NCBI GenBank assembly: GCA_977017645.1
Contig: OZ360226.1
Coordinates: forward strand, 54,250,001-54,314,000
Length of the DNA stretch: 64,000 nucleotides
Source of the DNA: Torpedo marmorata
Taxonomy: Eukaryota
Direction of reading: 5' to 3'
Under the pieces are notes generated by a model. That model was not told where the DNA came from and made no database searches. It saw only the letters and a program-made list of their open reading frames with translations. Positions 2,022-63,428 of this stretch are shown one piece after another; within the stretch, counting starts at the first letter, position 1, and the number at the start of each line of letters is the position of its first letter. A program made the position numbers and the translations under genes.

Positions 2022-2282
2022 GTACTCTAATAATATCCTTGAAGCAGCAGAGAATCTTACCCACCAAAAGGAAATCTCTTCTCTTCTGTCAAAGAAAACA
2101 TTTTGGAATTAACCCAATTTTTGTTATGAAATTGGAATTATTTGCATAATTTGTTATCCTTGTAACAATTATGTTACTTTTCTAACTTCTTGGAATGTTG
2201 GTTCTTTTGGGAAATGAAATGCAAATGATGCCTAGAAATTTACCTACATTTTGTACCACTAATGCAATAATATGATAGGAAC

Positions 2283-2792
2283 TGTAAGAGCCAAAGGATT
2301 GTTTCTTACCTTCATGGTGGTGTTCTGTTGGTCCCCATGGGTGTCGGAGAAGTCCCGAAGTTTAGAAGGCCATCTTTGTTGTAGTGCACATGTGCGAGTG
2401 CCGGTTGGAGCATGCTCAGTGCGTTCGTGTATTGGAGAGCCGGCTGGAGCATGCTCAGTGCGTAGGTGTATTGGAGTGCCAGATGGAGCATGCGCGGTGG
2501 GGCAGCGCGCGAATCGGCAAAGGCATTATAAAACATGGCAACATAGAAGAGGGTGAGTGAGGCTCTCATAATTTTCGTTGACCGTTAGCACGGATCATTT
2601 ATACTTCATTATCGCGGATCGTTCATATTTCGTTAAAGAAGATAGTTAAGTTATTGAAGATTGCTACAAGTCATCGTGTGTTAATAAACATTTTGAACAT
2701 ATTGGACTTGGTAGCAAATTAATTGAAACTCGTCAGAAACAAGTGTCTCACCTAGCCTCCAAGCGACTATTAATTGGATAGAAGTCGCTACA
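2283..2792 (+). repeat. 5' LTR of BEL copy 1
   Basis: TGTAAG...TACA; direct repeat of 9760-10269; about three ~39-bp internal repeats (GGAGCATGCTCAGTGCG). Confidence 0.92.
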
Positions 2793-3249
2793 ATTTAGTC
2801 AACAAAAATTTATTGTTTGGAACAGAAAATTGAAGAATAGAAGATAGAAAATAATCTCTCTGTGTTTTGGATTGATATTTAAAATAAAATGCCAGCCATC
2901 TTGGAAATGCCTCGAGTTAGGGGCAGTTTGTAATCCACATCCATCTGCCATGAGTAACAGCCAGGGAGGGATTCAGAGCTTCTAATCTTATAGTAAAGTG
3001 TCCTATAAACACGTTGGTGGAGCCATTTCTTGAAAATCAGTGATATTAATGACGGATGCTGTGGTGGAAACTCGTTTGTTAATAGCAGCACATTACAGCC
3101 ATCTGAAGCAGTAGGCTGTGGACTCCTTCTGTGTATCTTTGGCAAGTTTGAACACAGTTTGGATTTTGCTGCCACTAGTCCATTGGGGACTGTTGATTTG
3201 GCTTGTGTTGTGCATGCTCGACGGACGGGGGTGGAACAAGACGAGTAAA

Positions 3250-3402
3250 ATGGCTGCAGCTGCCGCTGATGTTGCTGTTGAGGAACAACGTATTGAAGAC
3301 ATGAAGGTTGTGGATCTCAAAGAAGAATTGAGGTGACGGAAACTGGATACAAGTGGAAATAAAAGTGTTCTCATTGTAAGACTGAAGCTGGCAATGGAAG
3401 AA
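3250..3402 (+). pseudogene. SAP DNA-binding domain at the N-terminus of BEL Gag (one in-frame stop)
   Basis: MAAAAADVAVEEQRIEDMKVVDLKEELR*RKLDTSGNKSVLIVRLKLAMEE fits the SAP consensus (LKxELxxRxLxxxGxKxxLxxRL). Confidence 0.8.
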
Positions 3403-4857
3403 GCCACGACTTCAGTTGATGGGAATGAAGACATTGCAAAACCAGTGCAGAAGACAATGACTGAACATGAAGACAGCAACGTGGAAATGGTTGAAGATGT
3501 GTCACCAAATGGTGATGAAGATGAAGAAAATGAAGAGGATGAAGATGCAAAGGATGCACAATACGAATTGGAGAAAGAGATAAGTAAGAAGACAACATCT
3601 GAGTAAATTATCTAGTTTATGATGATAAGAAGTCATATTTTAAAAAAGAGCCACAGGAAAAGAAACCAGCCAAATGGGTAGATATTTTAGTAACACGGGT
3701 ACAAGACATGCAAATACAAGGACAAATCCTCCCAGAGCATGGTGTTATCAAGTCACTTGTACCAGTGGTAACATCCGAAGACAAAGCTGTGGCTTGGGTT
3801 CAGTCAAACGCTGCAGCTCCCTTGGCATTCGAGTCAAACATCAGAAATACGGGTGAACCTGCACCAGTGAGGTTTCCAGATACATTACCTGTTACAAGAG
3901 GTGGTGAACAGACCAACGTACTATCAAACATGGGAAGACAAAATGAAATTACCGCATCATTGATCCAGCTACAGTCTCTTTCTTCTTTACCCAAGAAAGA
4001 GATACAAGCTTTTGTTGGTGATCCACTTCAGTACCAAGCGTTCATGAGATCTTTCAAATGCAATATTGAAAATAAATTGCCAAGACCCTGATGAATGTCT
4101 TTATTATTTGGAAATGTTCACAAAAGGACAGCCAAGGGAACTTGTAAAGAGTTGTCAACATATGTCCTCGGATAGAGGATTAGACAGAGCTAAGTCTTTA
4201 CTGGAACAGCATTTTAGCAACAAGTATCGGATTGCTTTAGCTTATATGGATAAAGCTCTTAAATGGTCATCAATAAAACCGAATGATGTAAAAGCTCTAC
4301 AAGCATACACTCTCTTTTTAAGAGGATGTTGTAATGCCATGGAAGATATCGATAATATTCGTGAGCTTGATGTGCCTGGTAATATGCCAATTATCTTAGA
4401 TAAATTACCATACCGGATGTGGGATAGATGGAGAAATTTGGCTAGTGATTTCCAGTAAAAATACGATCAAAGAGCTACCTTAAAGGATTTGGTGGATTTC
4501 CTTGAATGACAGGTGTACATTGAAACAGATCCAATATATGGAAATACCAGAGACACTTCAATGGGGAACAAAGATGTAAGGAGGTCTAACTCACAGCCTA
4601 GTCTGAAATTGAAAGGACATTTGCTACTACTGTGTCAGTTATAAATAAATAAAAAGATAAAGTAAATAAGGAAAAAGAGAGTTTGCCAAATGAGAAGAGT
4701 TGATTGTTTTGTATAGGTGGACATGCTTTGGAAATGTGTTTATGGTTGGAAAAGAAGGAACATAATGAGAAGATCGCTTTCTTAAAGGAAAATTGAGTAT
4801 GTTTTGGTTGTCTGTGTAAAGGGCACATCAGTAAATACTGCAAGAAGTGACTTAACT

Positions 4858-6354
4858 TAAGCATGGAAAAGTTCACCTGGAATTATGAGTTGGGTGGAAT
4901 GCAACTTCCTAATTTTCAAAATTATTATAAAGCAGCCCAATTAAAATTTGTTAATGAATTTTTTGATTCATCTAAATCTTCTGCTTGGATTAAAATAGAA
5001 TTAAATAATATAGGAGAAAATTTTAAAGAAGAAATTATTTATAAATGGGATTCTAAATTAATATCAGTAAAAAAGAAAAATTCACCGATTATTAAACATT
5101 TGTTAGAAATATGGGGTAAGATGGATAAAGAGATAGGTGGAAGAGGATTAATTTCTTCAAATATGCCACTATATCAAAATGGACTTATATCATTTACTGT
5201 TAATAATCAGTTATTTAAAATTTGGTTTCAAAAAGGTATTAAGAAGATTAATGATTGTTTTGAAGCTGGAAAATTTATCACGTTTCAAAGAATGAAAGAT
5301 AAATTTAATATACTAGATAATACATTTTTAGCTTATTATCAAGTTAAAGCTTTTTTAACTGAGAAATTAGGTCATGCTTTGATTTTACCAAGACAAAATG
5401 AATTAGAATTATTAGTTACTAATGGAGAAGTTAATAAATTTATTTCTCAAATGTATAAATTGTTTCAGAGGAAAATGCCTAAAATAGGATTGCATAAATC
5501 AAGATTAAAATGGGAATTAGATTTAAATGTAAATATAGATGAAAATCATTGGAAAGATTTATGTAAATTAAGTATGACAAAAATTATTAATGTTAGATAT
5601 AGATTAGTACAATATAATTTCTTTCATCAATTATATTTAACACCTAAAAAATTAAAGAAATTTAATTCGACATTATCAGGATTATGTTTTAGATGCAATA
5701 ATGAGGAAGGTTCTTTTGTTCATTCTACATGGTTTTGTCCAAAGATTCAAGATTTTTGGTTGAAAGTTAAAAAATCTTTAGATAAAATATTTAATATAAC
5801 ATTTTCAATGGATCCTATTTTATTTTTATTTGGAGATATTAGAAAATTTAGTATTAAAAATAAATTAAATATGTTTCAAGTAGAATTTTTACGAATTGCT
5901 TTAGCGGTTTCGAAAAAATGCATTGCTCTTACTTGGAAATCTGACTTAGATTTAGGATTAGAAAGATGGCATGCAGAGCTCCGTTCGTGTATACCACTGA
6001 GAAAAAATACTTATAATTTACGTAATAAATATCATTTCTTTTTGAAAATTTGGAGCCCATATATGAGAGCTGTGGGTTTAAGGATTTGAAGATCTCTAGA
6101 CATCGAATCTACTGGCATACTTGACCTCCGTAATAGAATTAGTTTATAGATGATATTCCCCTTATTCTATCTTTTCCTTTCTTTCTTTTTTCTATTTTTA
6201 TTTTTACTTTTACTTTATATTACTAGATTAGTGGGGATGGGGGGGGTTAGGGAGGGGAGGGAGGTGGGGGGGTGAAAATGTATCACATGTATTTTGACAA
6301 TTTTATATTTTATGTATTTTGTGATTTAAAAGTTTAAATAAAATAATTAAAAAA
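4858..6354 (+). mobile_element. 5'-truncated L1 LINE (ORF2 C-terminus and 3'UTR) inserted in BEL1 gag
   Basis: ORF 4863-6089 with CFRC..H..W.C motif; G-rich tract, AATAAA, A-tail; 16-bp TSD AAGAAG(T/C)GACTTAACT at 4842-4857 and 6355-6370. Confidence 0.93.
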
Positions 6355-6479
6355 AAGAAGCGACTTAACTGTAACATATGCAATTTGAAGCATCCTAGAA
6401 TGTTGCATATCCATCAAAGAAACAAGGAATTGGAAAAGGAGCAAACAGGAAAAAAGGAAACATCAGAAAACAGTATTAT

Positions 6480-7315
6480 TAATATTCAAATCCATCTCCC
6501 ATCTTTGTCCAGACCTATGAATCCCTTTTTTTAAAGTTCCTTTTTGTAGTAAGGTATACATGGCTGAAGTAAATTTCTTTGTGTCTATTCCGAATCAAAA
6601 CTTCAATATCACTTGGTTTCGGCAATAACATTGTTGGGCCTAATTTATCTCCTAAATATGCTCTTAACTGATAATAACAAAAAAGTGTGTTATTTTGTAT
6701 TCGGTATTTATACCTTAATTGTTCAAATGACATTAATTTATCCCCTTCATAACAATCTTCTATGTATCTAATTCCTTTACGAGACCATATATTTAAAAGT
6801 TGATTATCCATTGTAAAAGGAATAAGTCGATTTTGGATTAAAGATAATGTATAGCAGTAACTTGGAAATCTGACTCCCATTTGGGTATGGAGCAGTGGAA
6901 TACAGAAATGCATAGTTGTATCCCACTTGAGAAGATTACATAATTTAAGAAACAAATATGATGTATTTTTGAAAATTTGGCACCCATATTTACAAATTGT
7001 AGGAATAAATTTATAGATTTCTCCACCCCGAGTACCTCGTTAATCTCCTTGAGAGAATTAGGACCAAAAAAAAGTAACTAATTAAACTGTGTTGTAGGTA
7101 GCGACTTCTTACCATCCAGGTTACTTTATCATACTTTTCTTTTTATTTATTTTCTTTTCTTTGTTCCTTTCTGGGGTTTTGGTGTGGGGGGAGGGGGGGT
7201 CTGGATTTAGCCATCATGTATAAATAAAGTAATAATAATGATTTGATATTTTATTATGTATTATACAAATTATGCATGTATGGACAAAATGTTAAAAATA
7301 AAATATTCAAAAAAA
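6480..7315 (+). mobile_element. L1 LINE with 5' inversion (6480-~6845 minus, ~6846-7315 plus)
   Basis: Minus part encodes ORF2 QNRLIPFT..RWEMDLNI; plus part encodes KCIAVTWKSD..KIWHPY, 3'UTR and A-tail; 15-bp TSD AGAAAACAGTATTAT at 6465-6479 and 7316-7330. Confidence 0.88.
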
Positions 7316-8351
7316 AGAAAACAGTATTATAGCCTCGGTTCAGACAAGTGGTCTTACTGGGACTGGTGTGGATAACTGCAAACTTTTAATAGTGCCTGTA
7401 CAAGTCAAGACCAAGAACGGGGATGCATCAGTATGTACTTATGCATTTCTCGACACAGGCAGCACTGCATCGTTTTGCATGGTGGGACTAATGAACAAAC
7501 TTAATCTTCAGGGAAGAAGGTCGAGGATTATGTTGAAAACCATGGGACAAGAAAAGGTCATTGAAACCAGCATTGTTTCAGGCTTAGAGGTTGCTGGATT
7601 GCATGATAAAGATTTTTGGGATCTTCTAAGTTTATATACTCAGAAGACTATTCCTGTGCACGAAGGAAACATTCCACATCAAAACAATGTCCATCAGTTG
7701 TCTTATCTGTGGAAGGTTTATCTACCTGAAGTTAATTCTGAGGTAGAGATACTGATTGGTTCAAATGTACCAAAGGTTTTGGAACCACTAGAAGTAATAC
7801 AGAGTAGGGGAAATGGACCTTATGCTATTAAAACTATACTTGGTTGGACAATTAATGGACCATTGGAAAGAAATAATGATATTGCTCAGGAACAGTTAGC
7901 GATAAATGTTAACAGGATTTCGGTTGTGAAATTTGATGAGTTAAGGGAACAGCAAAAGACTGTAAATAAGAAAGTCACTTTTGAAGAAAAGAAAACAGAT
8001 CAATGTGAAAATAAATCAAAAGCATTTAACACAACATTGAAGGAATTATTTTAATCAGAAATGGATGAAAATGAAGTATTAGAAGATGTTGCAAATACTA
8101 CTAGTGATTATTCCTGTGTAATTGAATCTGAGGCAGGACTAAAACAAATGACTGAGAACAAATTTGAAAGTAGCTTTTGTAGCTCAGAGGTTACAGCAGA
8201 CAAGGTCAATGAAGAAATGTCGCAACATTCAAACTGGGAAACGCAGAAAATTGTGACTAACAATTTAATGCAACTGTATTCAGAGAACAAAATGTTGAAA
8301 AGGGACTTGGAAATATTGGATAATCATGAAAACAGCAAACAGAAAGAATTA

Positions 8352-9185
8352 ATTGTGAATAAAATTTGCAAAGCCAGAAAGCGGAAGAAAATAATAACTG
8401 CTGAATAAATAAATAGTTATTGAGGAAAGAGATACAGCATTATCAAGATGTAAAAGGTTGGAGGAAGAGATTCATCTTTTGAAAGAGAACAAGTCATTGG
8501 TTAATAACACAAAACAGCTGACTATAGAAAACAATCAAGAATGTAAATTGAATGTTCAGCTATTAACAATGCAGAAAGAAAGTGATATTGCATTGCAGAA
8601 ATGTAACAAGCAAGATGAAGATTTTTATTTTAGTAGATTAGTAGGGATGGGAGGGTTAGGGAGGGCAGGGAGGGGGGTGAAAATGTATCACAAGTATTTT
8701 GATAATTTTATATTTTACTTTATGTATTTTGTGATTTAAAATTTTAAATAAAATATTTAAAAAAAGAATGTAACTTGAAGGCTCAGCTACTAACAATGCA
8801 GAAAGAAAGTGATATTGTATTGCAGCAATGTAACAAGCAAGATGAAGAAATTCAAACATTTCAAGTTTACCACAGCAGGGATGACAACAGAACTACCAAT
8901 GTATTAGATGATCTTTTCACTTTAGGTCAAGTTATTAATTTCTCAGAAGATAATGAGAGAATTACTTTCTTATTGAAATAATTGAATACAGAAAGAGAAT
9001 CTAATAAAAGGCTTCAAAATAAATGGTCAGAAACTGAGATTGAATTGAAAGTTGCAAAATTGTATATGGAATTTCAGGAAAAGGCTATAGACACCAGAGT
9101 GGTTGAAAAGACTGCAGTTTTAGTTAAAGAGATTTGTATGAACCATAAGTGGAACCAGTCTACTTCTTTCCAGGTTTCCACAAAT
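8352..9185 (+). pseudogene. MIPOL1: Intronless MIPOL1-like coiled-coil fragments captured inside BEL1, circularly permuted
   Basis: IVNKICKARKRKKIITAE..IEERDTALSRCKRLEEEIHLLKE..LTIENNQE..AQLLTMQ..EEIQTFQVYHS followed by ..GQVINFSEDNERITFLLK*LNTERESNKRLQNK..EFQEKAIDTRVVEKTAVLVKEI; both blocks match MIPOL1 as I recall it, but in reversed order; stops and a frameshift present. Confidence 0.75.
8622..8763 (+). mobile_element. Very short L1 3' end (G-tract plus tail)
   Basis: Matches L1 3'UTR at 6222-6354; flanked by an ~85-bp direct repeat. Confidence 0.85.
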
Positions 9186-9759
9186 GTGGTGGTTGTTGAT
9201 GAGTTTGAAGAAATAATGTCGTTTGAATCTTATCTTATTTATAACCAACTGTGGAAAAGAAAGAAAAAGATGAGCCAAATTTGTTGCAGGGAAGGTTAAA
9301 GACACTCATTTATTAAAATTGAGAGGATCAGATAAATATTCAAAATCTGGTTCTGAAAGTTTAAATTCTTCCTATGAGAAGTGGAATGCTGAAGAAAGTG
9401 AAACGACATGCTGAAGAAGTACCTCATGTTAAATTCAAAAGGAAAACTATCTATTTTTTTCTGAGGAAGATTTGAGGTTTACTGGTTGACGTTTTAACTC
9501 AAAGATTCTGGAGATAAAGGAACTTTGATCAAAGAAAAAAATTGACTGTATTTTGTTGGTTTTTTGTATACTACACAGGTTACAGACTTTATTGATCCAG
9601 AGTGGTGGTAAAAGATCACTCTTTTCCAAGGCTATGTGCTGGTAAACTCTGGTCTTATGAAGAAAGAATTGTATATTGTTTGAATGTTATGTTTATTGTA
9701 ATTTGCAATTGATTATGTAATTATTATTTAAGACATTACATCTCATAATTAGGGGCCGG

Positions 9760-10269
9760 AGTAAGAGCCAAAGGATAATTTCTTACCTTCATGACGGTGT
9801 TCCTTTGGTCCCCGCGGGCGTCGGAGGAGTCCCGAAGTTTAGAAGGCCATCTTTGTTGTAGTGCGCATGTGCGAGTGCCGGTTGGAGCATGCGCAGTGCA
9901 TTCGTATATTGGAGTGCCGGCTGGAGCATGCTCAGTGCGTAGGTGTATTGGAGTGCCAACTGGAGCATGCGCGGTGGGGCAGCGCGCGAATCGGGAAAGA
10001 TATTATAAAACATGGCGACGTAGAAGAGGGTGAGTGAGGCTCTCATAATTTTCGTTGACCATTAGCACGGATCGTTTATATTTCATTATCGCGGATTGTT
10101 CATATTTCGTTAAGGAAGATAGTTAAGTTATTGAAGATTGCTACAAGTCATCGTGTGTTAATAAACATTTTGAACATATTGGACTTGGTAGTAAACTAAT
10201 TGAAACTTGTCACGAACAAGTGTCTCACCTAGCCTCCAAGCGACTAATAATTGCATAGAAGTCATGACA
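9760..10269 (+). repeat. 3' LTR of BEL copy 1
   Basis: Direct repeat of 2283-2792, ends GACA then TSD GGAAC. Confidence 0.92.
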
Positions 10270-10854
10270 GGAACAGAATGATATATTGTCTCCAAATATA
10301 TTGTATCCAAAGTACAGTATATTGTCATTTTTCCATTGTACAGAGTTTGGCACTACTCACAGAAGAATGTTATGCATGTAGGCCTGCATTTGTCACTCAA
10401 CAGGGAGTAGGAGGAAAATCATATTTATGGCCTGACCTTGACCCCCTATCTATATCACATCAATCACAGAGGGCCATTTCCCATCACTCATTCTATTTCT
10501 CATCACACACATCAGTCTCCCAATTCAACAGCCTCTGCGATTTAGTGCCCTCCATAATGTTTGGGACAAAGATACATTTTTTCCCCTTTATTTGCCCCTG
10601 TGCTCGTTTTAAATTTGTAATCAAACAATTCATGTGATTAAAGTGCACATTCCAGATTTTATTAAAGGTATTTGTGTACATTTTGGTTTGACCATGTAGA
10701 AATTACAGCACTTTTATACACAGTCCCCTCATTTCAGGGCACCACAATATTTGGGACATAGCAAAGATATGTATATTAGTCATGTTTAGTACTTTGTTGC
10801 ATATCCCTTGCATGCAATAACTGCTTGAAGTCTGAGATTCATAGACATCAATTA

Positions 10855-41639: not shown

Positions 41640-42637
41640 TGTAAGAGGCATAGGCTTAGTTAATTACCTTCATCGCGGCATTCCGATGGTCTTAGCGGGT
41701 TTCGGAGGAGACACGGAGATTAGTAGGCCGTGCTGGGCCTATTTAGTACTCTGCGCATGCACGGGAGTGCCGACGGGCGCATGCGCAGTGGGGAAGTGAG
41801 TGCAGTATGCGCGGTGGAGCCAGCGTGTTGGAGCATGCGCGAATCTGAGAAGAAGTAGTATAAGAATATGGCGACTTAGAGGAGGGTGAGTGAGATCGTC
41901 ATAGCTTTCATTGATCGTTTAAAGGAATGTTTAAAGGAATTTATAAAGAATAATTTTAAAGGAAGTTTAAAGACATTTTAAAGAATCGTTATTAAGCATC
42001 GTTATCAAGAATTGTTTATATTTCGTTAAAGATATTTAAGTCATTGAAGATTGCTACAAGTCATTGTGTGTAAATAAAGTTTTTGAACCTATTGGACGTG
42101 TTAGTAAATTAATTGAAACGCGTCAAGAACAAGTATCTCACCTAGCCTCCAAGTGACTTTGTTGGATTGAAGTCACTATATGTTTAGTCAATGAAAGTTT
42201 ATTGTTTGGAAGAGAAAATTGAAGGAAAGACGATAGAATAATCTCTCTGCGCTTTGGACTGATATTTAAAATAAAATGGTGGCCATCTTGGAGATGTCTC
42301 GAGTTAGGGGCAGATTGTAATCCACATCCATCTGCCATGAGTAACAGCCAGAGAGGGATTTAGAGCTTCAAATCTTATAGTAGTGTCCTATAAATATGTT
42401 GGAAAGACCATTTCTTGAAAATCAGCGATATTATTGACGGATGCTGTGGTGGAAACTCATTTGTGAATAGCAGCCCATTACAGTCATCTGAAGTGGTAGG
42501 CATAAGTCTGTGGACTCCTTCTGTGTACCTTTGGCAAGTTTGAACACAGATTGGATTTGCTGCCGCTAGTCCATTGGGGACTGTTGATTTGGCTAGTGTT
42601 GTGCATGCTCAAAGGACGGTGGAACAAGACGAGTGAA

Positions 42638-42820
42638 ATGGCCGCAGCAGCCGCTGATGCAGCAGCAGCTAACGCAGAAACCGCTGTGTTGCTGTTGAGG
42701 AACAACGTATTGAAGACATGAAGGTTGTGGAGCTCAAAGAAGAATTGAAGCGACTGAAACTAGATACAAGTGGAAATAAAAAGGTTCTCATTGCAAGACT
42801 GCAGCTGGCAATGGAAGAAC
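42638..42820 (+). pseudogene. SAP domain at the N-terminus of BEL2 Gag
   Basis: RIEDMKVVELKEELKRLKLDTSGNKKVLIARLQLAMEE. Confidence 0.82.
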
Positions 42821-44870
42821 AGGCGGCTTCGGTTGATAGGAATGAAGACATTGCAAACTCATTGCAAAAGACAACGACTGAACAAGAAGACAGCAACGTG
42901 GAAATGGCTGAAAATGTGTCATCAAATGAAGTTGAAGAAAACGAAGAGGATGAAGATGCAAAGGATGTACAATGCAGATTGGAGAAAGAGGTAAGTAAGA
43001 AGACAACATCAGACCTGCAGGTCGAAATACAAGCATGTGACAGTGTTTCAAATGTTGAAAGCAGGAGAAGCAAAATAAGTTCTTCTGGTTTAAGCTCCAG
43101 TGTCTCGTACTTCAAGTTCTGCATCGTCACATACAAAGATTGAAGTTGACTTGGCCGCTCTTATTGTACGACAAAAATCTCAAGGATAAACATGTTTTAG
43201 AAGAACAGGAGGAGCAGCTTAAAGAACAGGAGGAGCAGCTAATGCATAGCCAGCAGCTAAGGCAGAAACAGGAGCAGCTAAGGTAGAGCCAACAGCTAAG
43301 GAAGAGACAGGAGCAGCTGAGACAGAGAAAGGAGCAGCAGGAGCTGAAAACAAATATTGCTATTGCCATGGCCAGAAAGAAGGTACTAGAAGGCTTAATG
43401 GTATCTGTTGCTCAGAGTAAATTATCTAAAGTGTATGATAATAAAAAGTCATATTTTAAAAAAGAGTCACAGGAAAAGGAACCAACTAAAAGGGTAGATA
43501 TTTTAGTACCAAGGGTACAAGACTTGCAAATACAAGGATAAATCCTTCAAGAGTATAGTGTTATCGAGTCACATGTACCAGTGGTAACATCTGAAGACAA
43601 AGCTGCGGCTTGGGTTCGGTCGAACGATGCAGCTCCCTTGGCATTTGAATCAAGCATCAGAAATATGGGAGAAACTACACCAGTGAGGTTTCCAGATACA
43701 TTACCTGTAATAAGAGGCGGTGAACAGAGCAATGTATTATCATCCAATGGAAGACAAAATGAAATCACAGCATCATTGATTCAGTTACAGTCTCCCTCTT
43801 CTTTGCCCAAGAGATACAAACTTTTGATAGGGATCCACTTTAGTACCAAGCGATCATGAGATCTTTCAAACGCAATATTGAAAATAAATGCCAAGACCCT
43901 GATGAATGTCTTTATTATTTAGAAATGTTCACAAAGGAACAGCCAAGAGAACTTGTAAAGAGTTGTCAACATATGGCCTCAGAAAGAGGATTAGACAGAG
44001 CTAAGTCTTTACTAGAACAACATTTTGGCAACAAGCATCAAATTGCTTTAGCTTATATGGATAAACCTCTGAAATGGACATCAATAAAACAGAATGATGT
44101 AAAAGCTCTACAAGCACATACACTCTTTTTAAGAGAATGTTGTAATGCCATGAAAGATATCGATAATATTCGTGAGCTTGACGTGCCTGGTAATATGAGA
44201 AACCTTAGATAAATTATCTTACAAGTTGTGGGATAGATAGAGAAATTTGGCTTGTGATTTACAAGAAAATTACGGTCGAAGAGCTACCTTATAGGATTTG
44301 GTAAATTTTCTTGAACGACAGGTGTACATTGAAACAGATCCAATATATGGAAATACCAGAGACAATTCAATGGGGAACAAAGATGTAAGGAGGTCTAACT
44401 CACAGCCTTGTCTGAAATTGAAAAGGAGTACTTTTGCTACTAATATGTCAGTTATAAATAAAGAAAAAGATAAAGTAAATAAGGAAAAGGAAAGTTTGCC
44501 TAATGAGAAGAGTTGTTTGTTCTGTAAAGGTGGACATGCTTTGGAAATGTGTTTACGGTTGGAAAAAAAGGAAAATAATGAGATGATCGCTTTCTTAAAG
44601 GAAAATGGAGTATGTTTTAGCTGTCTGTGTAAAGGGCACATCAGTAAAAACTGTAAGAAGCGACTTAACTGTAACATATGCAATTTGAACCATCCTGGAA
44701 TGTTGCATATCCATCAAAGAAAGAAGGAATTGGAAAAGGAGCAAACAGAAACAAAGGAAACAACAGAAAACAATGTTAGAACCTCGGTTCAGACAAGTGG
44801 TCTTACCGAGGCCAGTGTGGATAACTGCAAACTTTCAATAGTGCCTGTACAAGTCAAGACCAAGAAAGGG

Positions 44871-47800
44871 ATACTGGGACAAAAACACCAGTATTTTATA
44901 TGCGGGGGTTTTCGTTTTTCTTTTTTTTCTTTCTATCTTTTACTTTATTTGAGGGGATACCATGTAGTTTACAATTTAGGAGGGAAAAGCTAGTAGATTT
45001 GATTGAAAGAGATTTGCTACAATTTGAAGAGTATAAATTTAGAAAGTATTAATATAAATGGGCTTAATAATCCGATTAAGAGAAAAAGAACTTTAGCATA
45101 TATTAAAAAGTTGAGGGTAGATATAGCTTTTTTACAAGAGACTCATTTGATAGACATGGAACATCAAAAATTAAAAAGAGAGTGGGTTGGTCACGTTGTG
45201 GCTTCTTCATTTAATTCTAAAGCAAGAGGGGTAGCTATATTAATTAAATAAAAAATTACCTTTTAAGATACAATCGGTAGTTACAGATGTAGCAGGAAGA
45301 TATGTTCTGATACATTGTCAAATTTATTCAGAATCTTGGACACTTATGAATTTATATGTGTCAAATCCAGATGATGAACAGTTTATTCAAGATGCCTTTT
45401 TGCACTTGTCAGATGCTAATGAGAATATTTTAATTGGGGGAGATTTTAATTGTTGTTTAGATTCAATAATGGATAAGACTTCAAGATCACCTGTTAGAGC
45501 TAAAATTGTTAAAAAAATTCTTAATTTGATGAAAGATTTAAATTTAATAGACATTTGGAGGAGATTGAACCCTAGGGAGAAAGATTATTCATTTTATTCT
45601 TTTAGACATGATTCATACTCTAGGATAGACCTATTTCTATTATCATCACAGGTTCAAGATAGAATAACGCAAGCATCCTATAAAGCGAGAGTAATCTCTG
45701 ATCATTCGCCTTTATTATTGTCTTGTATAATTCCGGAAAAAGAAAAAACTATATATAATTGGAGATTTGATCCGTCTTTATTAAAAAGGAAAGATTTTTG
45801 TGAATATATAAGAGAAATTCAGGAATTTTTGCGAATAAATGCTAATTCTATTAATGATAAATTTATAGTGTGGGAAGCTTTAAAAGCTTATTTAAGGGGT
45901 CTAATAATAAGCTATTCAGTTAAAATTAAGAAAGACTATCTTAAGGAATCAGAAAAAATTGAGAAGGAAATTGAACTTATGGAGAAGGATTTACAGAGAA
46001 ATAGATCAATTCAAAAAAGAAATCGTTTAATAGGGAAGAAATTACATTATAATTTGTTACAAACATATAAAATGGAAAAATTAATTGAGAAAACTAAACA
46101 AAGATATTATGAATTAGGGGAAAGAGCCCATAAGGTTTTGGCATGGCAATTGAAAAAAGAACAAGTTTCCAAAACTATAAATGCTATAAGGAAGAAAAAT
46201 ACTGGAGAAATAACTTATAAACCTCAAGAGATAAATGAATCTTTTAAAGATTATTATCAGAATTTATATAAATCGCAGATTGATCAAGACGATTCTAAAA
46301 TTAATAGATTCCTATCCAAAATCACATGACCTAAATTGAATATTCAGAGTAGAGACTCTTTAGATCTGCCTTTTACAATGAGGGAAGTTAGTGAAGTTTT
46401 TTCTTCGCTGAAGAGTGGTAAATCTCCGGGTGATGACGGGTTTCCATCAGAATTTTATAAAGAATTTAAAGATTTATTAATACCTCCTTAAATGGAAGTA
46501 CTAGATCAAATTACAGAAACTCATTCATTACCGAAAACATTTTTAAATGCTATAATTACAGTTTTACCAAAGAAAGATAGAGATGTATTAAAAACTGAAT
46601 CATATAGACCTATTTCATTATTAAATGTAGATTATAAAATAATGGCAAAAATTTTAGCAAACAGAATGGCTAAATATTTGCCAGATTTGATACATATAGA
46701 TCAAGCTGGTTTTATTAAAAATAGATATTCAAAAGATAATATAGCTAGATTAATTAGTTTAATTAGTTTGCATAAAAAGAAACAAGATCTACCATTAGTT
46801 GTAACATTAGACGCTGAAAAGGCTTTTGATAGATTAGAATGGAACTTTTTATTTAAGGTATTAGAAAAATTTGGTTTTGGAAATACATTTATAAATTGGA
46901 TTAAAACTATATATAAAGAACCATCAGCTAAAGTAATTACAAATGGACAAGTATCGTCAAAATTTTCTTAAACACGTTCTACGAGACAGGGATGTCCTCT
47001 GTCACCAGCTTTATTTGTTTTGGCGATAGAACCCTTGGCTGAATTAGTTAGAAAAGATCCTAAGATAGTGGGTATTAAAGTTGGTATGGAAGAACATAAG
47101 ATTAGTTTGTTTGCAGATGATGTATTGATATATATGACAAAATCTATTACATCACTTCAACAACTATCTATCATATTAAGAGAATATGGTGAAATATCTG
47201 GATATAAAATTAATTCTGATAAAAGTGAAATAATGGCTTTATCTCAAGGTGATTATACTAGATGTAAAGAAATTACACAATTTAAATGGGATAAAGAAGA
47301 AATTAAATATTTGGGAGTTAAGGTTGATACAAAATTGGAAAATTTATATAAATTAAATTATCCACCATTATTTGTGAAAATAAAGAAAGATTTAGAGAAT
47401 TGGAAAGATTTACCCATAACTTTAATGGGAAGAGTAAATTGTATTAAAATGAATATTTTTCCAAGAGTTCAGTATCTTATTCAATCAATTCCTTTTGGAA
47501 TTCCTCAAAATTTTTTTAAAGATTTAAATTTTATTATTAGGAAATTTTTATGGAAAGGAAAGTTAGCAAGAGTAAGTATGGAAAAGTTAACTTGGAATTA
47601 TAAGATGGGTGGATTGCAACTTCCTAATTTTCAAAATTATTATAAAGCAGCTCAATTAAAATTTGTTAATGAATTTTTTGATTCAACTAAATCTTCTGCT
47701 TGGATTAAAATAGAATTAAATAATATAGGAGAAAATCTTAAAGAAGAAATTATTTATAAATGGGATTCTAAATTAATATCAATAAAAAAGAAAAATAGAA

Positions 47801-50800
47801 CCGCTTCTCGAGCGACGGAGGGGGGTGACACTGGGGTATATAATCCGGTGTTATTTATGGGCTATTATTTTTTCTTACTTTTCTGTTTTTCCATTCTATT
47901 TGAGGAGAAAATATGTGATCAACAGATTAGGAGGGAGATGCCAGTGGATCTGTCAGATAGAGAATGTTTAAAGTTTAGTCATGGTGGATTCTAGAAGTAT
48001 AAATTTTGTAAGTATTAATGTTAATGGGCTTAATAATCCAATTAAGAGGAAAAAAACTTTGGCACATATTAAAAAATTGAAAGTAGATATAGCTTTTTTA
48101 CAGGAAACACATTTGACTGATAAGGAACATCAAAAGTTAAAGAGAGAATGGGTGGGACATGTAGTAGCTTCATCTTTTAATTCTAAAGCGAGAGGTGTAG
48201 CGATTTTAGTTAATAAAAAATTACCATTTAAAATACAATCAGTAGTGACCGATATAGCTGGTAGATATGTTTTAGTACATTGTCAAATTTATTCAGAAAC
48301 ATGGACTTTTTTAAATCTATATGTTACAAATCCAGATGATGAACAATTTATTCAAGATACTTTTTTACATTTATCTGAGGCTAAGGAAAATATTTTAATT
48401 GGTGGAGATTTTAATTGTTGTCTTAATGCAAATATGGACAAAACTACTAGAACATCTGTTAGACCTAAAATAGTTAAAAGAATTATTAATTTAATGGATG
48501 ACCTGAATCTGGTAGATATCTGGAGGAAGTTAAATCCTAGAGAAAAAGATTATTCATTTTATTCTTTTAGACATAATTCATTTTCAAGGATTGATTTGTT
48601 TTTGATATCTTCACAAGTTCAGGACAGAGTAACTCAAATATCTTATAAAGCAAGAATAATCTCAGATCATTCACCTTTGTTAATGACATGTATAATTCCA
48701 GAGAAAGAAAAAACTGCATATAATTGGAGATTAGATTCTTCTTTATTAAATAGAAAAGACTTTTGTGAATATATAAGAAAAGAAATTCAGGAATTTTTAA
48801 GAATTAATAATAATTCAGTTAATGATAGATTTATAATTTGGGAATCTTTAAAAGCATATTTAAGAGGTTTGATAATAAGTTTCTCGGCAAAAATTAGAAA
48901 AGATTATTTGAAAGAAGAAGAAAAATTGGAAGGGGAGATTGAATTTATGGAAAAAGATTTTCAAAGAAATAAAACAATTTTTAAGAGACAACGTTTAATT
49001 AGGAAAAAACTGCATTATAATATATTACAAACACGAAAAATAGAAAAATTAATTGGTAGAACAAAACAAAGATATTATGAATTGGGAGAAAGAGCACATA
49101 AAGTTCTAGCATGGCAATTAAAAAAAGAACAAGTTTCTAAAACTATAAATGCTATAAGAAAAAAAAGAACTGGTGAAATAACCTATAAACCTCAAGAAAT
49201 AAACGATTCCTTTAGAGAATATTATCAGAATTTATACACTTCACAGATTGATCAAGATGTTACAAAAATTGATAATTTTTTATCTAAAATTACATTGCCT
49301 AAATTAAATAATTTTAATAGAGATTTGTCAGATTTACCTATTACAATGAGAGAAGTAGTTGAAGCTTTATCGACATTGAAAAGTGGTAAATCTCCTGGTG
49401 ATGATGGATTTCCGATAGAGTTTTATAAGAAGTTTAAAGATTTACTGATACCTATATATATGGAAGTATTGACTCAAATAAAGGAAACTCATTTATTACC
49501 GAAAACATTTTTAAATGCTGTTATTACAGTTATACCAAAGAAAGATAGAGATGTATTAAAAACTGAGTCATACAGACCTATATCACTGTTGAATGTAGAT
49601 TATAAATTAATGGCAAAAATTTTGACAAACAGATTAGCTAAGTTTTTACCGCTTTTAATACATTCAGATCAAGCAGGATTTATTAAAAATAGATATTCGA
49701 AGGATAATATAGCAAGATTAATAAGTTTAATTAATTTGCAAAAAAGGAAACAGGATTTACCGTTGGTGATAACATTAGATGCAGAAAAAGCATTTGATAG
49801 ATTAGAATGGAATTTTTTATTTAAGGTTTTAGAGAAATATGGGTTTGGAAATACTTTTATAAATTGGATTAAGACAATATATAAGGAACCTACAGCTAGA
49901 GTAATTACAAATGGTCAGATATCATCTAAATTTTCCTTGACGCGATCAACAAGACAAGGATGTCCTTTATCACCTGCTTTATTTGTATTGGCAATAGAAC
50001 CGTTGGCTGAAATGATTAGGAAAGATATCAATATAAATGGGATTAAAGTAGGTGCAGAAGAGCATAAAATTAGTTTATTTGCAGATGATGTATTAATATA
50101 TATGACAAAATCTATTGGATCGCTTCAACAATTAGCTAAGATACTGAGGGAGTATGGTGAGATATCTGGTTATAAAATAAATTCAGATAAGAGTGAAATA
50201 ATGGCTTTATCTCAAGGAGATTATACTAAATGTAAAGAAGTTACAGGATTTAAATGGGCTAAAGAAGCAATTAAATATTTGGGAGTTAAAGTAGATACAA
50301 AATTGGAAAATTTATATAAATTAAATTATATACCTCTATTTCAGAAAATAAAGAAAGATTTGGAAAATTGGAAAGATTTACCTATAACCCTAATGGGAAG
50401 AGTGAATTGTATTAAAATGAATATCTTTCCAAGAGTTCAATACCTTTTTCAATCTATACCTTTTGGAATTCCTCAAAAATTTTTTAAAGATTTAAAAATC
50501 ATTGTTAGAAAATTTTTATGGAAAGGAAAATTAGCAAGGGTAAGTATGGATAAATTAACTTGGGAATATGAGATGGGTGGATTACAACTCCCCAATTTTC
50601 AATATTATTATAAGGCAGCACAATTAAAGTTTATTAATGAATTTTTTGATTTAACTAAATCTACTGCTTGGATTAATATAGAATTGAATAATATAGGGGA
50701 AAGATATAAGGAAGATATTATTTATAAATGGAATTCTAAATTATTATTAGTTAAAAAGAAAAAATCACCGATTATTAAACATTTACTGGAAATCTGGACT

Positions 50801-53354
50801 CAGTTAGACAATGAGATAGGACGAAAAGGGTCATTATCTTTGAATATGCCATTGTATCAGAATTTATTGTTACCTTTTTCTATTGATAATCAATTTTTAA
50901 AACTATGGTTTCAAAAAAGAATTAAGAAGATTAAAGATTGTTTTGAGGCTGGAAGATTTGTTACATTCTCTAGGTTGAAAGAAAAATTTGGAATAATGGA
51001 TAATACGATTTTGGCTTATTATCAGGTTAAAGGATTTTTAGTTGAGAAATTGGGGAATCAATTAATAACTCCTAGACAGGATGGATTAGAATTATTAATT
51101 ACTAATGGAAATGTTAACAAGTTTATATCACAAATGTATAGATTACTTCAGAGAAAGATGCCTAAGGTAGGATTGCATAAATCAAGATTAAATTGGGAAT
51201 CAGATTTAAATATTAGTATAGATGAAAAACATTGGAAAGAATTATGTAAATTGAGTATGACCAAAATTATTAATGTTAGATATAGATTAGTACAATATAA
51301 TTTTTTTCATCAATTATATTTAACACCTAAAAAATTAAAGAAATTTAATCCGGCACTATCAGATATGTGTTTTAGATGTAGGGATGAAATAGGTTCTTTT
51401 GTACACTGTACATGGTCATGTTTAAAAATTCAAAATTTTTAGTCTAAAGTTAAGGATTTTTTGGATAGAATTTTTAATATTACGGTTCCAATGGACCCTA
51501 TGTTATTTTTATTTGGAGATATTAAAAAATTTAGTATTAGAAATAGATTGAATATGTATCAAATAGAATTTTTGCGAATTGTTTTAGCGGTTTCAAAAAA
51601 ATGTATCGCTATTACTTGGAAATCAGATTTAGATTTGAGTTTAGATAGATTACATGCAGAATTACGTTCTTGTATACCATTGGAAAAAATTACATATAAT
51701 TTACGTGATAAATATCATTTCTTTTTGAAAATTTGGAGCCCATATATGAGAATTATGGGTATGAATTAATTCTCTAGAAGTTGGTACCGCTGGCAAAAAT
51801 AACCTCCAATATATAAATAGAATTAGCTAGTAATTTGTTTTCTCCTCACTTTAACTCTTTAATTCTTTATTATTCAACTCTTTTCTTTTTTTTTCTTTAT
51901 AACTAACATTCTTTTTTTTTTCTTCTTTTTTTTTTAGAATAGTGCTGGGGGGTTGGGGAGGGGAGGGTGGGAGGTAATATATCACATGTATTTTAAATGA
52001 TATACTATTTTTGATTCATGTATTTTGTGATTTTAAAATTTAAATAAAATTATATAAAAAAAAGAAGAAAAAAAAGAAAAATTCACCAATTATTAAAAAT
52101 TTGTTAGAAATATGGGGTAAGACGGATAAAGAAATAGGTGGAAAAGGATTAATTTCTTAAAATATGCCATTATATCAAAATGGACTTATATTATTTACTG
52201 TTAATAATTACTGTTAATAATCAGTTACTTAAAATTTGGTTTCATAAAGGTATTAAGAAGATTAATGATTGTTTTGAAGCTGGAAAATTTATTACGTTTC
52301 AAAGAATGAAAGATAAATTTAATATACCAGATAATACATTTTTAGCTTATTATCAAGTTAAAGCTTTTTTGACTGAGAAATTAGGTTATGCTTTAATTTT
52401 ACCGAGACAAAATGAGTTAGAATTATTAGTTACTAATGGAGATGTTAATAAATTTATTTCTCAAATGTATAAATTGTTTCAGAGGAAAATGCCTAAAATA
52501 GGATTGCATAAATCAAGATTAAAATGGGAATTAGATTTAAATGTAAATATAGATGAAAATCATTGGAAAGATTTATGTAAATTAAGTATGACGAAGATTA
52601 TCAATGTTAGATATAGATTAGTACAATATAATTTTTTTCATCAATTATATTTAACACCTAAAAAATTAAAGAAATTTAATCCGACATTATCAGGCTTATG
52701 TTTTAGATGCAATAGAGAGGAAGGTTCTTTTGTTCATTCTACATGGTTTTGTCCAAAAATTCAAGATTTTTGGTTGAAAGTTAAACATTTTTTAGATAAA
52801 GTATTTAACATTGCATTTCCAATGGATCCTATGTTATTTTTATTTGGAGATATTAAAAAATTTAGTATTAAAAAGAAATTAAATGTTTCAAGTAGAATTT
52901 TTGCGAATTGCTTTAGCTGTTTCAAAAAAATGCATTGCTATTACTTGGAAATCTGATTTAGATTTAGGACTAGAAAGATGGCATGCAGAACTTCGTTCGT
53001 GTATACCACTGGAAAAAATTACTTATAATTTACGTAATAAATATCACTTTTTCTTGAAAATTTGGAGCCCATATATGAGAGCTGTGGGTTTAAGGATTTG
53101 AAGATCTCTAGATATCAGATCTGCTGGCATATTTGACCTCCATAATAGAATTAGTTTAGAAGGTATTCCCCTCATTCTATTCTTTTCTTTCTTTTTTCTA
53201 TTTTATTTTATTTTTTATTTTTTATTAGATTAGTGGGGATGGGGGGGGTTGGGGAGGGGAGGGAGGGTGAAAATGTATCACATGTATTTTGATAATTTTA
53301 TATTTTATCTCATGTATTTTGTGATTTAAAAATTTAAATAAAATAATTTTAAAA
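44871..53354 (+). mobile_element. 5'-truncated L1 (complete but disrupted ORF2) inserted in the BEL2 protease region
   Basis: 15-bp TSD AAGACCAAGAAAGGG (44856-44870, 53355-53369); ORF2 pieces 45003-47796 and 52083-53101; same subfamily as 4858-6354 (ends MRAVGLRI). Confidence 0.93.
47797..52069 (+). mobile_element. Young 5'-truncated L1 nested in the preceding L1; ORF2 intact except one stop
   Basis: 13-bp TSD AAAAAAGAAAAAT (47784-47796, 52070-52082); 1153-aa ORF 47981-51442 plus same-frame 51461-51769; same subfamily as 28277-34040 (ends MRIMGMN). Confidence 0.95.
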
Positions 53355-56300
53355 AAGACCAAGAAAGGGGATGCAACAGTACATACATATGCATTTCTCG
53401 ATCCAGGCAGCACTGCATCTTTTTGCAAGGAAGGACTAATAAACAAACTTAATATTCAAGGAAGAAGGTCAAGAATTATGTTGAAAACCATGGGACAAGA
53501 AATGGTCGTTGAAACCAGCATTGTTTTCGGCTTAGAAGTTGCGGGATTGCATGGCAAAGAATTTTGTGATATTCCAATGTTATACACTTAGAAGACTATG
53601 CCTGTGCATGAAGGAATCATCCCTCATCAAAATGATATTAAACTGTGGTCTTATCTGAAAAATGTTTGTCTACCTGAAATTGGCTCTGAGCTAGAAATGC
53701 TGATTGGTTTAGATGTACCCAAGGCTTTGGAACCACTAGATGTAATAAGGAGTGTGGGAGATGGACCATACGCTGTTAAAACCATGCTTGGTTGAACAAT
53801 CAATGGACCATTAGGAGGAAAAGGTGATAGTGCTCAGGAACAGTTAGCGATACATGTTAACAGGATTTCAGTTGTGAAACTTGAGCTGTGGGAACAGCAG
53901 TTTAAAAGTGACTTTCCTGAGTGTCTCAGTGATGACCAAGAACATTCAAAAGAAGATAGGCAGTTCTTGAATTTAGTGTCAGAATCTGCCAAGCTAGTTG
54001 ATGGACATTATTGTATTGGATTACCTGTAAAGATAAGAGAAGTATACATGCCTGACAATAGAAGTGTTGCTGAACAACGTACACTGAACTTAAGAAAAAG
54101 ATTCAGGAGAGATTCTTCTTTTCATTTAGACTATACCAATTTCATGTATGACATGATATCCAAAGGTTATGCAGAGAAAATACCAGATGATGTCTTGGGA
54201 CGTCGTGATGGTAAAAAATGGTATTTACATCCACAGAAGAAAAAACTGTGTGTTGTGTTTGACTGTGGAGCGACCTTTAGAGGAGTGTCACTAAATTCTC
54301 AGTTGTTCCAAGGGCCAGACCTGACTAGTACATTGATTGGAGTCTTGGTTAGATTCTGTAAAGTACCTTTTGTTATCACTGCTGACATTGAAGCAATGTT
54401 TCATCAAGTGAAGGTACCAAATGAAGACCGTGACTTGTTACGGTTCCTCTGCTGGCCTGATGGAGACTACAGTCAGAATATGGTGGAATATAGAATGACA
54501 GTGCATTTATTTGGAGCAACATCATCTCCAAGTTGTGCGAACTTTGCCCTTAGGAAGTGTGCTGAGGACAACGTGAAAGAGTTGAGCTCTCAAGCTGTAA
54601 ACATCATTCTGAACAATTTTTATGTGGATGACTGTCTTACTTCTACAACTTCAGAAGAAGATGCAATATCTCTTTATTATGAGTTACGAAAGATTTGTTT
54701 AAAGGGTGGCTTTCTACTTACCAAATGGATAACTAACAGTCGTCGGGTGTTGGCTGTCATACCTGAAGCAGAAAGGGCAAAGGAAATGAAGAATCTGGAT
54801 TTGGACCATGACAATCTTCCAGTAGAGAGGGTGTTGGGTGTACAATGGTGTGTTCAATCTGACGATTTTAAATTCAAAATCATTTTGAAGGACAGACCTC
54901 TCACAAGAAGAGGGATTCTTTCAACGGTCAGTTCAATTTATGATCCCTTAGGAATACTGGCACCAGTAGTACTAACTGCCAAGAAGATCCTGCAAGATTT
55001 GTGTAGAAAAAAGATTGGTTGGGATGATAAGATACCAGACTCCATTGTACAGAAATGGATGTGTTGGAATCAGGATCTTCATATGTTGGAAGACTTCAAG
55101 GTTGACAGATGTTTCAAACCCAACAACTTTGGAAAGGTGACATTTGCTCAATTGCATCATTTTGCTGATGCATGTGAGGACAGTTATGGAACTGTTAGTC
55201 ATCTGTTATTGCATAGTAATGATGCTCAGATACATTGTGGATTTGTGATGGGAAAGGCCAGAGTGGCTCCATTAAAACCAGTTACTATACCTCGAATGGA
55301 GTTGACGGCTGCTGCCAAGGCAAGTAGAATGGACACAGTGCTGAGAAAAGAGCTGCAGATGAATCTAGCAGACTCTATCTTTTGGACAGATAGCACATGT
55401 GCTTAAATACCTCAACAATAAGACAACAAGGTTTCGAACTTTTGTGGCTAACAGAATTGTTGAAATCGATAAAGTCTCATGTCCAAAAAAGTGGAGATAT
55501 GTTAAAGCAGTTAATAATCCTGCTGATTTGGCTTCTTGAGGTTTGAAAGTCAAGTCTTTTCTAAAGAATGAAATGTGGGTATCAGGGCCTCAGTTTCTTC
55601 TACAGCCTCAAAATGAGTGGCCCAAAAATCCTGATAAATTAAAGGAAATTTTATTAGATGATCCTGAAATCAAGAGAAGAACCCTACAATCAATCTAGAA
55701 TTGGGATTAAAACTGCAAATGCAGAGCAGATAATACCTGAACAAAAGGATTGGGTTACTGATTTGATCCATTACTTTTCATCCTGGAATAGTTTGAGAAG
55801 GGCAATAGCATGGTTGCTCAGATTTAAAAGATGGTATTTGAATCGTAACAAACGAACAATGTTACTGAAACGCAGGAAAGAGGACGTCTTTCAGTTGAGG
55901 AATTAATTAATGCTGAGATGGAGATAATCTGCTTTTGCCAGAAGAAAAAATTTGCAGACAAAATCTCAAGTTTAAAAGGGGGAACGAATGATAAAAGGAC
56001 AAGTCATCTTCGTAAACTTAATCCCATTCTGGAGAATGGTGTATTAAGGGTTGGTGGGCAACTTAGCAGAGCAGCAATGCCAGAAGAGATGAACATCCTG
56101 TTATACTGGCCAAGGATTTTTATACCTCTGATCTAATTCTTCGGCATATTCATGAAAAGGTGGGTCATGGTGGTCGCAACCATATGTAATCCAGACTACG
56201 ACAAAAATATTGGATACCTGGTGCCACTGTGTTAATCAGAAAAATTTTAATCAAAATGTGTTATTTTTCATTGGCCGTTTAAAGGAATGTTTAAAGGAAT

Positions 56301-63074: not shown

Positions 63075-63320
63075 GGCCGCCGACGCGGCCCGAACTCGCC
63101 CCAGGTTACGCGAGAAGGGAAGGGGACTGCCTCCCCTTTGTCCACCGACAATAGTCCACCTTCTCCAGGAACTCCTTTTGACAGCTTCAAACTCACAGCG
63201 TCTCCCAACACCCGGAGACACAGCAGAAACAGACACAAAATGGCGGCTCGTGTAAATATGGAGGATCACCGGCTCCTTCGCCCACAATGCACCGCACTCT
63301 CACCCACTGCAGACTCCGGT

Positions 63321-63428
63321 GGATCCGGAGATCGCCGAATGGATCCGGAGATTGCCGAATGGATCCGGAGATCGCCGAATGGATCCGGAGATCGCCGAAT
63401 GGATCCGGAGATCGCCGGATGGATCCGG
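63321..63428. repeat. 20-bp minisatellite (GGATCCGGAGATCGCCGAAT x5.4)
   Basis: Five contiguous units, two with a single substitution, no spacers. Confidence 0.95.

Follow-up and report, generated by a model that had tools for sequence, protein, structure and literature searches.

Closest to the locus described here are the mouse pseudogenes of Dong et al. (2016), who reported 33 high-confidence copies derived from the circular RNA circRFWD2, with LTR sequence in their flanks and a mechanism that was called mysterious (PMC4897178). For LTR retrotransposons, Tan et al. (2016) described capture by template switching, with multi-gene chimeras, 'Super' retrocopies and one BEL case from mosquito, in a main text that makes no mention of circles (PMC5131818). 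For maize Bs1, a cited title speaks of a hybrid open reading frame (PMC5131818, PMC5408686), and among BEL/Pao elements the largest family of a 2011 survey numbered 397 copies, by a counting method other than the one used here (PMC3118150). As for the gene MIPOL1, a circ-Mipol1 has been reported from mouse, its exons not being stated in the cited part of that source (PMC9888537), and a vertebrate-wide survey counts MIPOL1 among the leading retrocopy parents of cartilaginous fishes. The main text of this survey interprets such parents as a functional group that selective filtering has shaped and does not contain the terms 'circular', 'BRCA1' or 'ELOA' (bioRxiv 10.64898/2026.06.26.734816).

Here we describe an LTR element in which three spliced host RNAs, namely BRCA1, MIPOL1 in permuted exon order and Elongin A (ELOA), replace pol in one reading frame. 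It lies in a 64,000-nt stretch of a 6.2-Gb ray genome (G000:C31:54250001-54314000), which we call the window. We consider it very probable that the whole arose by BEL/Pao template switching, with a 780-nt circular MIPOL1 RNA among the templates. In the open-access literature we found no earlier description of a BRCA1-MIPOL1-ELOA element family.

Results

Structure and state of the window element

The element occupies positions 2283-10269 of the window (Table 1) and has direct TG...CA LTRs, a short target duplication and a polypurine tract; from 2793 onward no tRNA primer site candidate starting with TGG was found. A short gag remnant lies at about 6355-6478, inside the LINE-interrupted stretch, and the matches to DUF1759 and DUF1758 fall under the curated cut-offs in this broken copy. 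The gag and protease DNA is 84-89% identical to that of a neighbouring RT-bearing element (41641-56543), relatives of which carry Peptidase_A17, integrase and DUF5641, in that order in the copy L123. Because the composite is without an RT core, RNase H (Peptidase_A17) and integrase core of its own, we class it by its domain content as a non-autonomous derivative of a BEL/Pao LTR retrotransposon. The window copy is dead: it has stops in BRCA1 (8052) and in both MIPOL1 blocks (8406 and 8979), frameshifts, one of them near 8412, and LINE insertions in gag and at 8622.

The RT-bearing neighbour is also broken, with several LINE insertions and its integrase end missing. Its pol region gave 4,941 first-look candidates in the genome, and its lineage is a candidate helper for the composite. 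In both elements Gag opens with a SAP domain followed by an acidic stretch (window 3250-3600, L101:6267-7115(-), neighbour about 42687-42958), which may go back to an earlier capture of host SAP-protein sequence.

The LINE tail at 8622 is flanked by two copies of an 85-bp segment (8537-8621 and 8764-8848, six differences). LINE-derived sequence ends at or near the same point of exon Eg in L002, L003, L004, L005 and L012 too, and the flanking duplications vary in length (9 bp in L002, 85 bp in the window); this point is a possible insertion hot spot, among copies that the query favoured. Directly upstream of the element lies a Gypsy-type RT/RNase H fragment (86-973, E 5e-34), and at 63300-63459 a GC-rich tandem repeat of about seven 20-bp units. 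One sibling (L019:2500-4010) carries over 30 tandem copies of a 39-bp unit that has expanded within its 3' LTR.

Table 1. Features of the composite element, in window positions.
Feature	Position	Strand	Evidence and remarks
Target-site duplication GGAAC, left	2278..2282	+	5 bp; identical to 10270-10274
5' LTR	2283..2792	+	510 bp, TG...CA; 38 differences from the 3' LTR over 510 columns
Broken gag region, SAP-like start and DUF1759	3250..4857	+	DUF1759 E 2e-4, below cut-off; SAP E 3e-3 in the window, 2e-12 in sibling L101
Secondary LINE insertions splitting gag	4858..7308	+	Self-BLAST against other copies within the window; zf-RVT E 3e-4
BEL/Pao aspartic protease region, FLDTGS motif	7309..7954	+	DUF1758 E 0.04, Asp_protease_2 E 0.02, both weak; 84% identity to RT-bearing neighbour 53355-53899
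BRCA1 mRNA fragment, spliced, colinear, shortened in the window's subfamily	7950..8352	+	Sibling ORF matches ray BRCA1 at E 4e-50; host exons on C61
Start of MIPOL1 block 1: Ef from +66 onward, then Eg and most of Eh	8345..8621	+	87% to spliced host exons
Secondary insertion of a LINE 3' tail, with 85-bp duplication	8622..8763	+	Siblings have the 85 bp once only
Remainder of MIPOL1 block 1: duplicate of the Eg end, then Eh complete to its splice donor	8764..8875	+	89% to host; Eh ends at 8875
Junction of back-splice type between Eh donor and Eb acceptor, both borders phase 2	8875..8876	+	Host exon mapping
MIPOL1 block 2: Eb and Ec, plus 16 nt from the start of Ed	8876..9133	+	83% to host
Short linker	9134..9155	+	Between MIPOL1 and ELOA pieces
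Elongin A (ELOA) mRNA fragment, spliced, colinear, shortened in the window's subfamily	9156..9506	+	Pfam Elongin_A E 3e-14 (sibling); PDB Elongin-A E 9e-36; host exons on C41
BEL integrase tail remnant, 3' UTR, polypurine tract (9750-9759)	9510..9759	+	Sibling tails match the integrase end of RT-bearing copies
3' LTR	9760..10269	+	Pairs with the 5' LTR; first base mutated
Target-site duplication GGAAC, right	10270..10274	+	Identical to left copy

Permuted MIPOL1 exons and the back-splice-type junction

The natural ORF of a sibling copy matches MIPOL1 of rays and sharks (29 matches, best E 8e-55), and on the Pristis protein block 1 corresponds to residues 367-469 and block 2 to residues 210-295, that is, in swapped order. 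Pfam gave no match to a MIPOL1 model, for the ray protein included. Matches that seemed to extend round the full circle (from residues 244, 280 and 301 onward) all start at Ef+45 to +50 and were rejected as alignment run-on into the BRCA1 cargo.

We read the host gene on contig C40 over 320 kb, from a large upstream exon to exon Ei, and all borders have the form AG..GT. Exons Eb to Eh measure 136, 106, 130, 34, 171, 108 and 95 nt, in sum 780 nt, and the frame stays open round the whole circle. Window position 8875 is the final base of Eh (host ..TACTACAG|gtaagc, C40:64385712) and 8876 the initial base of Eb (host taatag|CAGGGC, C40:64591881), 206 kb upstream of the Eh end, and both of these borders are phase 2. 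The remaining joins in the window, Ef|Eg and Eg|Eh (8448|8449 and 8553|8554) and Eb|Ec and Ec|Ed (9011|9012 and 9117|9118), are spliced, colinear and intronless, and there is no poly(A) tail at the parental end of the MIPOL1 piece. In the host gene each exon is single and in normal order across the 320 kb.

The first-pass annotation had read both blocks as intronless MIPOL1 in permuted order, with phase-2 boundaries on either side of the junction, and had named in advance, as the decisive result, that 8875 should map to a donor and 8876 exactly to an upstream acceptor. The host exons bear out all of this, and the duplication or reordering of host exons against which it had warned is contradicted by the gene itself. 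The extent and setting that it gave have to be revised: for the span 8352-9185 the real MIPOL1 match is 8345-9133, Elongin A beginning at 9156, and instead of a direct fusion to Gag-PR there is a spliced BRCA1 fragment in between and an Elongin A fragment behind.

The Eh-Eb junction was found in 30 of the 30 loci of the first genome search. An assembly artefact, or a chance resemblance among coiled coils, is refuted by several results: a 19-nt junction pattern has 4,929 exact genome matches against 0 for its control, the DNA is 83-97% identical to the host MIPOL1 exons, and the junction is bridged in contigs of three other organisms.

RT could also have jumped backward on an ordinary linear MIPOL1 mRNA at AG|C and hit both exon borders by chance. 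The junction does have 3 nt of microhomology on the linear mRNA, the element lineage often switches template at short matches, and non-circular routes to such junctions were noted by Dong et al. (PMC4897178). However, among the distinct backward joins on the spliced host mRNA an exon end meets an earlier exon start in 26 of 650,569, and among those with at least 3 nt of microhomology in just 9 of 14,073 (p 6e-4), so that a random backward jump would give an exact exon-border join with a chance of 4e-5 to 6e-4. Further, no other inspected switch point or shared deletion end joins two exon borders, and we regard such a jump as very improbable.

The captured sequence keeps to the circle: all 67 loci, the window and a relic copy described below stay within Eb-Eh, the 3-nt microhomology aside. 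In the genome the linear Ea|Eb join gave 0 exact matches and, at up to two mismatches, 34 against 8 in the control, and exon Ei matches one genome place. Linear Ea-Eb and Eh-Ei continuations show as loose ends in contig run X12. A search for the parental circRNA in contigs, which are presumed to be of RNA origin, did not bring it to light; the junction-bridging contigs carry 18-73 differences from the reference copy and resemble element copies. The introns flanking the circle are long (49.6 and 61.8 kb), and inverted repeats between these two introns are not enriched (63 inverted against 74 direct pairs). The Eb acceptor at C40:64591881 is a tandem NAGNAG, where the shark isoforms P0008 and P0009 differ by one residue; the captured junction uses its upstream AG.

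BRCA1 and Elongin A fragments and the switch points

The BRCA1 fragment consists of four spliced host exons (C61) in normal order, one join of which is kept in the window at 8064|8065. It maps to about residues 201-372, and slightly beyond, of the Narcine protein, and its reading as the coiled-coil region was therefore rejected. In the public Narcine BRCA1 isoform P0037 no RING families are listed and the first ~180 residues look transposon-derived, a start that is probably a gene-model error. The Elongin A fragment consists of five spliced host exons (C41), also in normal order. With the Narcine bancroftii protein a host Elongin A exon shares 89-90% identity, which makes an electric ray the most likely host.

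The least shortened copies read, in order, gag, protease, RT start, BRCA1 (about 655 nt), MIPOL1 (587 nt, from Ef+48 to the end of Eh and then from Eb to Ed+18), a linker of 20-24 nt, ELOA (about 740 nt), integrase tail, 3' UTR and LTR. BEL sequence halts at the end of RT and resumes in the integrase tail; the internal ORFs are thus replaced, not interrupted. The RT core between two near-identical 8-mers has been deleted, a stretch that amounts to 729 nt on L123 and 711 nt on the window neighbour, both in frame, and to 728 nt on L124.

Short matches are found at four switches. BEL and BRCA1 meet where the RT domain ends, in a stretch of about 13 similar nt, BRCA1 and MIPOL1 share 2 nt, ELOA passes into the integrase at 6 identical nt, out of frame with it, and in the relic MIPOL1 passes into the integrase at 5 nt (8/9); these counts are descriptive. 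The MIPOL1-ELOA switch has the linker instead, for which neither the host loci nor the RT-bearing copies gave a convincing source.

A relic copy with most of the proposed circle

The part of Ed that is absent from the family occurs twice in the genome, once in the host gene and once at C59:59656556. The second is the relic L130, a broken copy without ELOA, laid out as BEL, BRCA1, MIPOL1 from Ef+48 to Eh, the junction, Eb, Ec, all of Ed, 25-28 nt of Ee and the integrase C-terminus, into which it goes in frame at a shared AAGAA (DUF5641 E 4e-19). Its MIPOL1 arc amounts to 724-727 of the 780 nt (~93%), holds no sequence from outside the circle and ends 53-56 nt short of one turn. Since L130 retains more RT sequence than the family, it looks basal to it by sequence. 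We infer that ELOA was added after the MIPOL1 capture, unless L130 represents a second, later capture.

An RT with RNase H destroys the RNA behind itself, and on a circle it should be able to copy at most one turn. The point at which L130 leaves MIPOL1 would fit this limit on a circular template. A linear RNA with repeated exons, produced by trans-splicing or by a since-lost ancestral 206-kb tandem duplication of Eb-Eh, would equally allow any capture of less than one turn, and indeed the longest is that of L130 and no copy exceeds a turn. Against it, every host exon is single today and the MIPOL1 proteins of rays and sharks have no repeated block; also, both ends of the capture lie inside Eb-Eh, just short of one turn, which a circle and RNase H would explain and a linear repeat need not. 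We therefore judge a repeated-exon template improbable. The exact junction and the relic with most of the circle both support the first-pass reading of a circRNA-derived retrocopy, and on these data a circular template for the MIPOL1 piece seems highly likely.

Copy number, subfamilies and spread

The window copy had been taken for the product of a single event and is one broken member of a family of thousands. In a sample of 72 copies the pattern of the exact search matches 44 and a looser pattern 70, and the looser pattern is found at 24,482 places at up to two mismatches (control 874). For the search for siblings by their junction, which the first-pass annotation had proposed, the 20-nt probe includes a base that, among the 30 loci listed, is private to the window copy, and it would miss siblings.

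There are at least three subfamilies, distant from the host exons by 5.9%, 12.9% and 17.5% and each 5.5-6.6% diverse within. Four copies (L076, L077, L085 and L092) lie within host MIPOL1 introns (G000:C40:64321501-64641500), three of them in sense, and belong to the third, more diverged subfamily. For dating against the split from Narcine, the host-derived sites divide evenly, with the copies matching the host at three and Narcine at three. Contigs in three of four runs, from the other organisms C, D and E, span the junction and extend at least 31 nt beyond it in both directions, so the family is common to several species; in run X13 no junction-bridging piece was found among the matches listed.

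Frame keeping and selection

Frame and substitutions were counted in 73 copies, a non-random set picked because they resembled the window or ray proteins. L009 (twin of L008) and L040, L044, L052, L103, L104 and L106 (inside larger loci) had been dropped before these counts; L033, L099 and L100, of intermediate type, stand outside the subfamily contrasts, and L130, found later, outside the counts.

The back-splice join is in frame in 71 of 71 copies scored. For the original BRCA1-MIPOL1 join the count is 39 of 39, and for the MIPOL1-ELOA join it is 57 of 62. Eight large deletions common to at least three copies keep the frame, and 26 of 122 private indels are multiples of three. The deletion from BRCA1 604 to MIPOL1 1017 is in frame in 10 alignments and off by one in 16, by way of a compensating 1-nt gap, and sibling L018 reads through it without a stop. 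Of about 96 changes fixed in the window-type lineage, 66.5 are nonsynonymous, 29.5 are synonymous and none is a stop, whereas the 382 private changes comprise 282, 78 and 22 of these (p 0.012 for stops; Fisher p 0.058 for N/S). No stop is fixed in the other two groups either, although their histories overlap.

Small shared indels depart from this pattern, 8 of 16 not being multiples of three, one of them an alignment artefact. A 2-nt deletion in MIPOL1 is shared by 6, and an 8-nt deletion in ELOA by 10, of 29 window-type copies, a 2-nt deletion in a TG repeat is common to 9 copies, and the window copy is among the sub-lineages with shared frameshifts. The lineage pN/pS of the cargo is 0.91-1.03 against a private baseline of 1.31-1.42, and the protease is more constrained than the cargo (0.76 against 1.30). 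In our reading, an open frame would have mattered more than the amino acids of the cargo in the master lineages, a rule apparently relaxed in late sub-lineages.

The tail might instead have been retained for the function of a BRCA1-MIPOL1-ELOA chimeric protein, as a coiled-coil aid to Gag assembly or as a decoy for host partners, whatever the template. The lineage-fixed pN/pS below the private one (0.91 against 1.42, at the p of 0.058 given above), the ELOA pN/pS of 0.46 in the window-type lineage and the retention of MIPOL1 block 1 in 72 of 73 copies speak for it; yet this retention is expected because the copies were selected on MIPOL1, the BRCA1 and MIPOL1 ratios are 0.84-2.3, and different subfamilies lose different parts of all three cargos. 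Moreover, the out-of-frame exit from ELOA makes the end of the product arbitrary. All in all, we find a protein function unlikely. Since one long frame was kept while the cargo amino acids drifted, the cargo is most likely translatable filler, which would keep the gag-PR RNA stable or in use, possibly through avoidance of nonsense-mediated decay.

Discussion

In the origin that we propose, a BEL/Pao LTR retrotransposon would have packaged host RNAs and its RT would have changed template at short sequence matches, one of the templates being the 780-nt circular RNA of MIPOL1 exons Eb-Eh. Moving 3' to 5', RT would have passed from the integrase tail into the circle close to where Ee ends, run through the back-splice junction, covered about 93% of one turn and exited in Ef onto BRCA1, which meets BEL where the RT domain stops. 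Elongin A would have come in by a later switch, displacing part of the circle and part of the integrase. Since the product, with Gag and protease only, has no RT, RNase H or integrase core, it must presumably have been mobilised by RT-bearing BEL relatives; it spread to thousands of copies, the replicating lineages holding one long open frame across the cargo while the amino acids drift. How circRNAs re-enter genomes was left open in the mouse study (PMC4897178); in the present family one can read the carrier, an intermediate and the points of entry and exit, and together they point to template switching by an LTR RT as the probable route.

A bolder statement, to which we give somewhat better than even chances, is that a circRNA was caught almost whole by an LTR RT, with RNase H forcing the exit before one turn, and is now part of one of the most abundant gene-derived repeats of a vertebrate genome, the RNAs of BRCA1, circMIPOL1 and Elongin A having been repeatedly taken as in-frame filler as the shortened gag-PR element needs a long open frame. 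If true, non-autonomous LTR elements of this 'ORF-stuffed' kind would be a new class, and the MIPOL1 retrocopy excess of cartilaginous fishes, so far unexplained, would be accounted for. If the excess in the vertebrate-wide survey is the present family, it would come down to one capture amplified by a transposon (bioRxiv 10.64898/2026.06.26.734816). The thousands of copies are material to test why non-autonomous elements keep host sequence, for an open frame or for protein function. With a genomic back-splice, and coding pieces of BRCA1, MIPOL1 and ELOA, present thousands of times, errors will also arise in these rays when circRNAs are called, genes annotated and retrocopies counted.

Like the mouse circRFWD2 pseudogenes, the family has an exact non-colinear exon junction, no poly(A), many copies and an LTR association; it differs in its at least 4,929 copies, in its occurrence in a cartilaginous fish, in a BEL/Pao carrier with resolved switch points, in a relic with 93% of the circle and in its in-frame position in the gag-PR ORF (PMC4897178). 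The mouse circRNA is known from RNA-seq (PMC4897178), whereas the MIPOL1 circle is deduced from genomic copies. As in the LTR-mediated retrocopies of Tan et al., internal ORFs are replaced by partial mRNAs of several parents with short matches at the switches, and further rounds of non-autonomous retroposition are seen here in the form of thousands of copies and at least three subfamilies; those were individual retrocopies (PMC5131818), whereas here thousands of copies make up one family, divided into subfamilies and with a signal of frame keeping. With BEL/Pao retrotransposons the element shares LTRs, a 5-bp target duplication and a gag-PR with weak likeness to DUF1759 and DUF1758, but host cargo stands in place of the RT core, RNase H and integrase core (PMC3118150). 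Maize Bs1 is likewise an LTR element with pieces of three cellular genes, but it is a plant element and the cited passages on it leave a circular template unmentioned (PMC5131818, PMC5408686).

The present element thus unites two known phenomena, that of the mouse circRFWD2 pseudogenes and that of maize Bs1, at far higher copy number. Bs1 itself is of low copy number, and the plant TR-GAG elements are non-autonomous elements with Gag only. The ingredients are known singly; their combination, the non-mammalian BEL carrier, the near-complete turn of a circle and the scale appear to be new.
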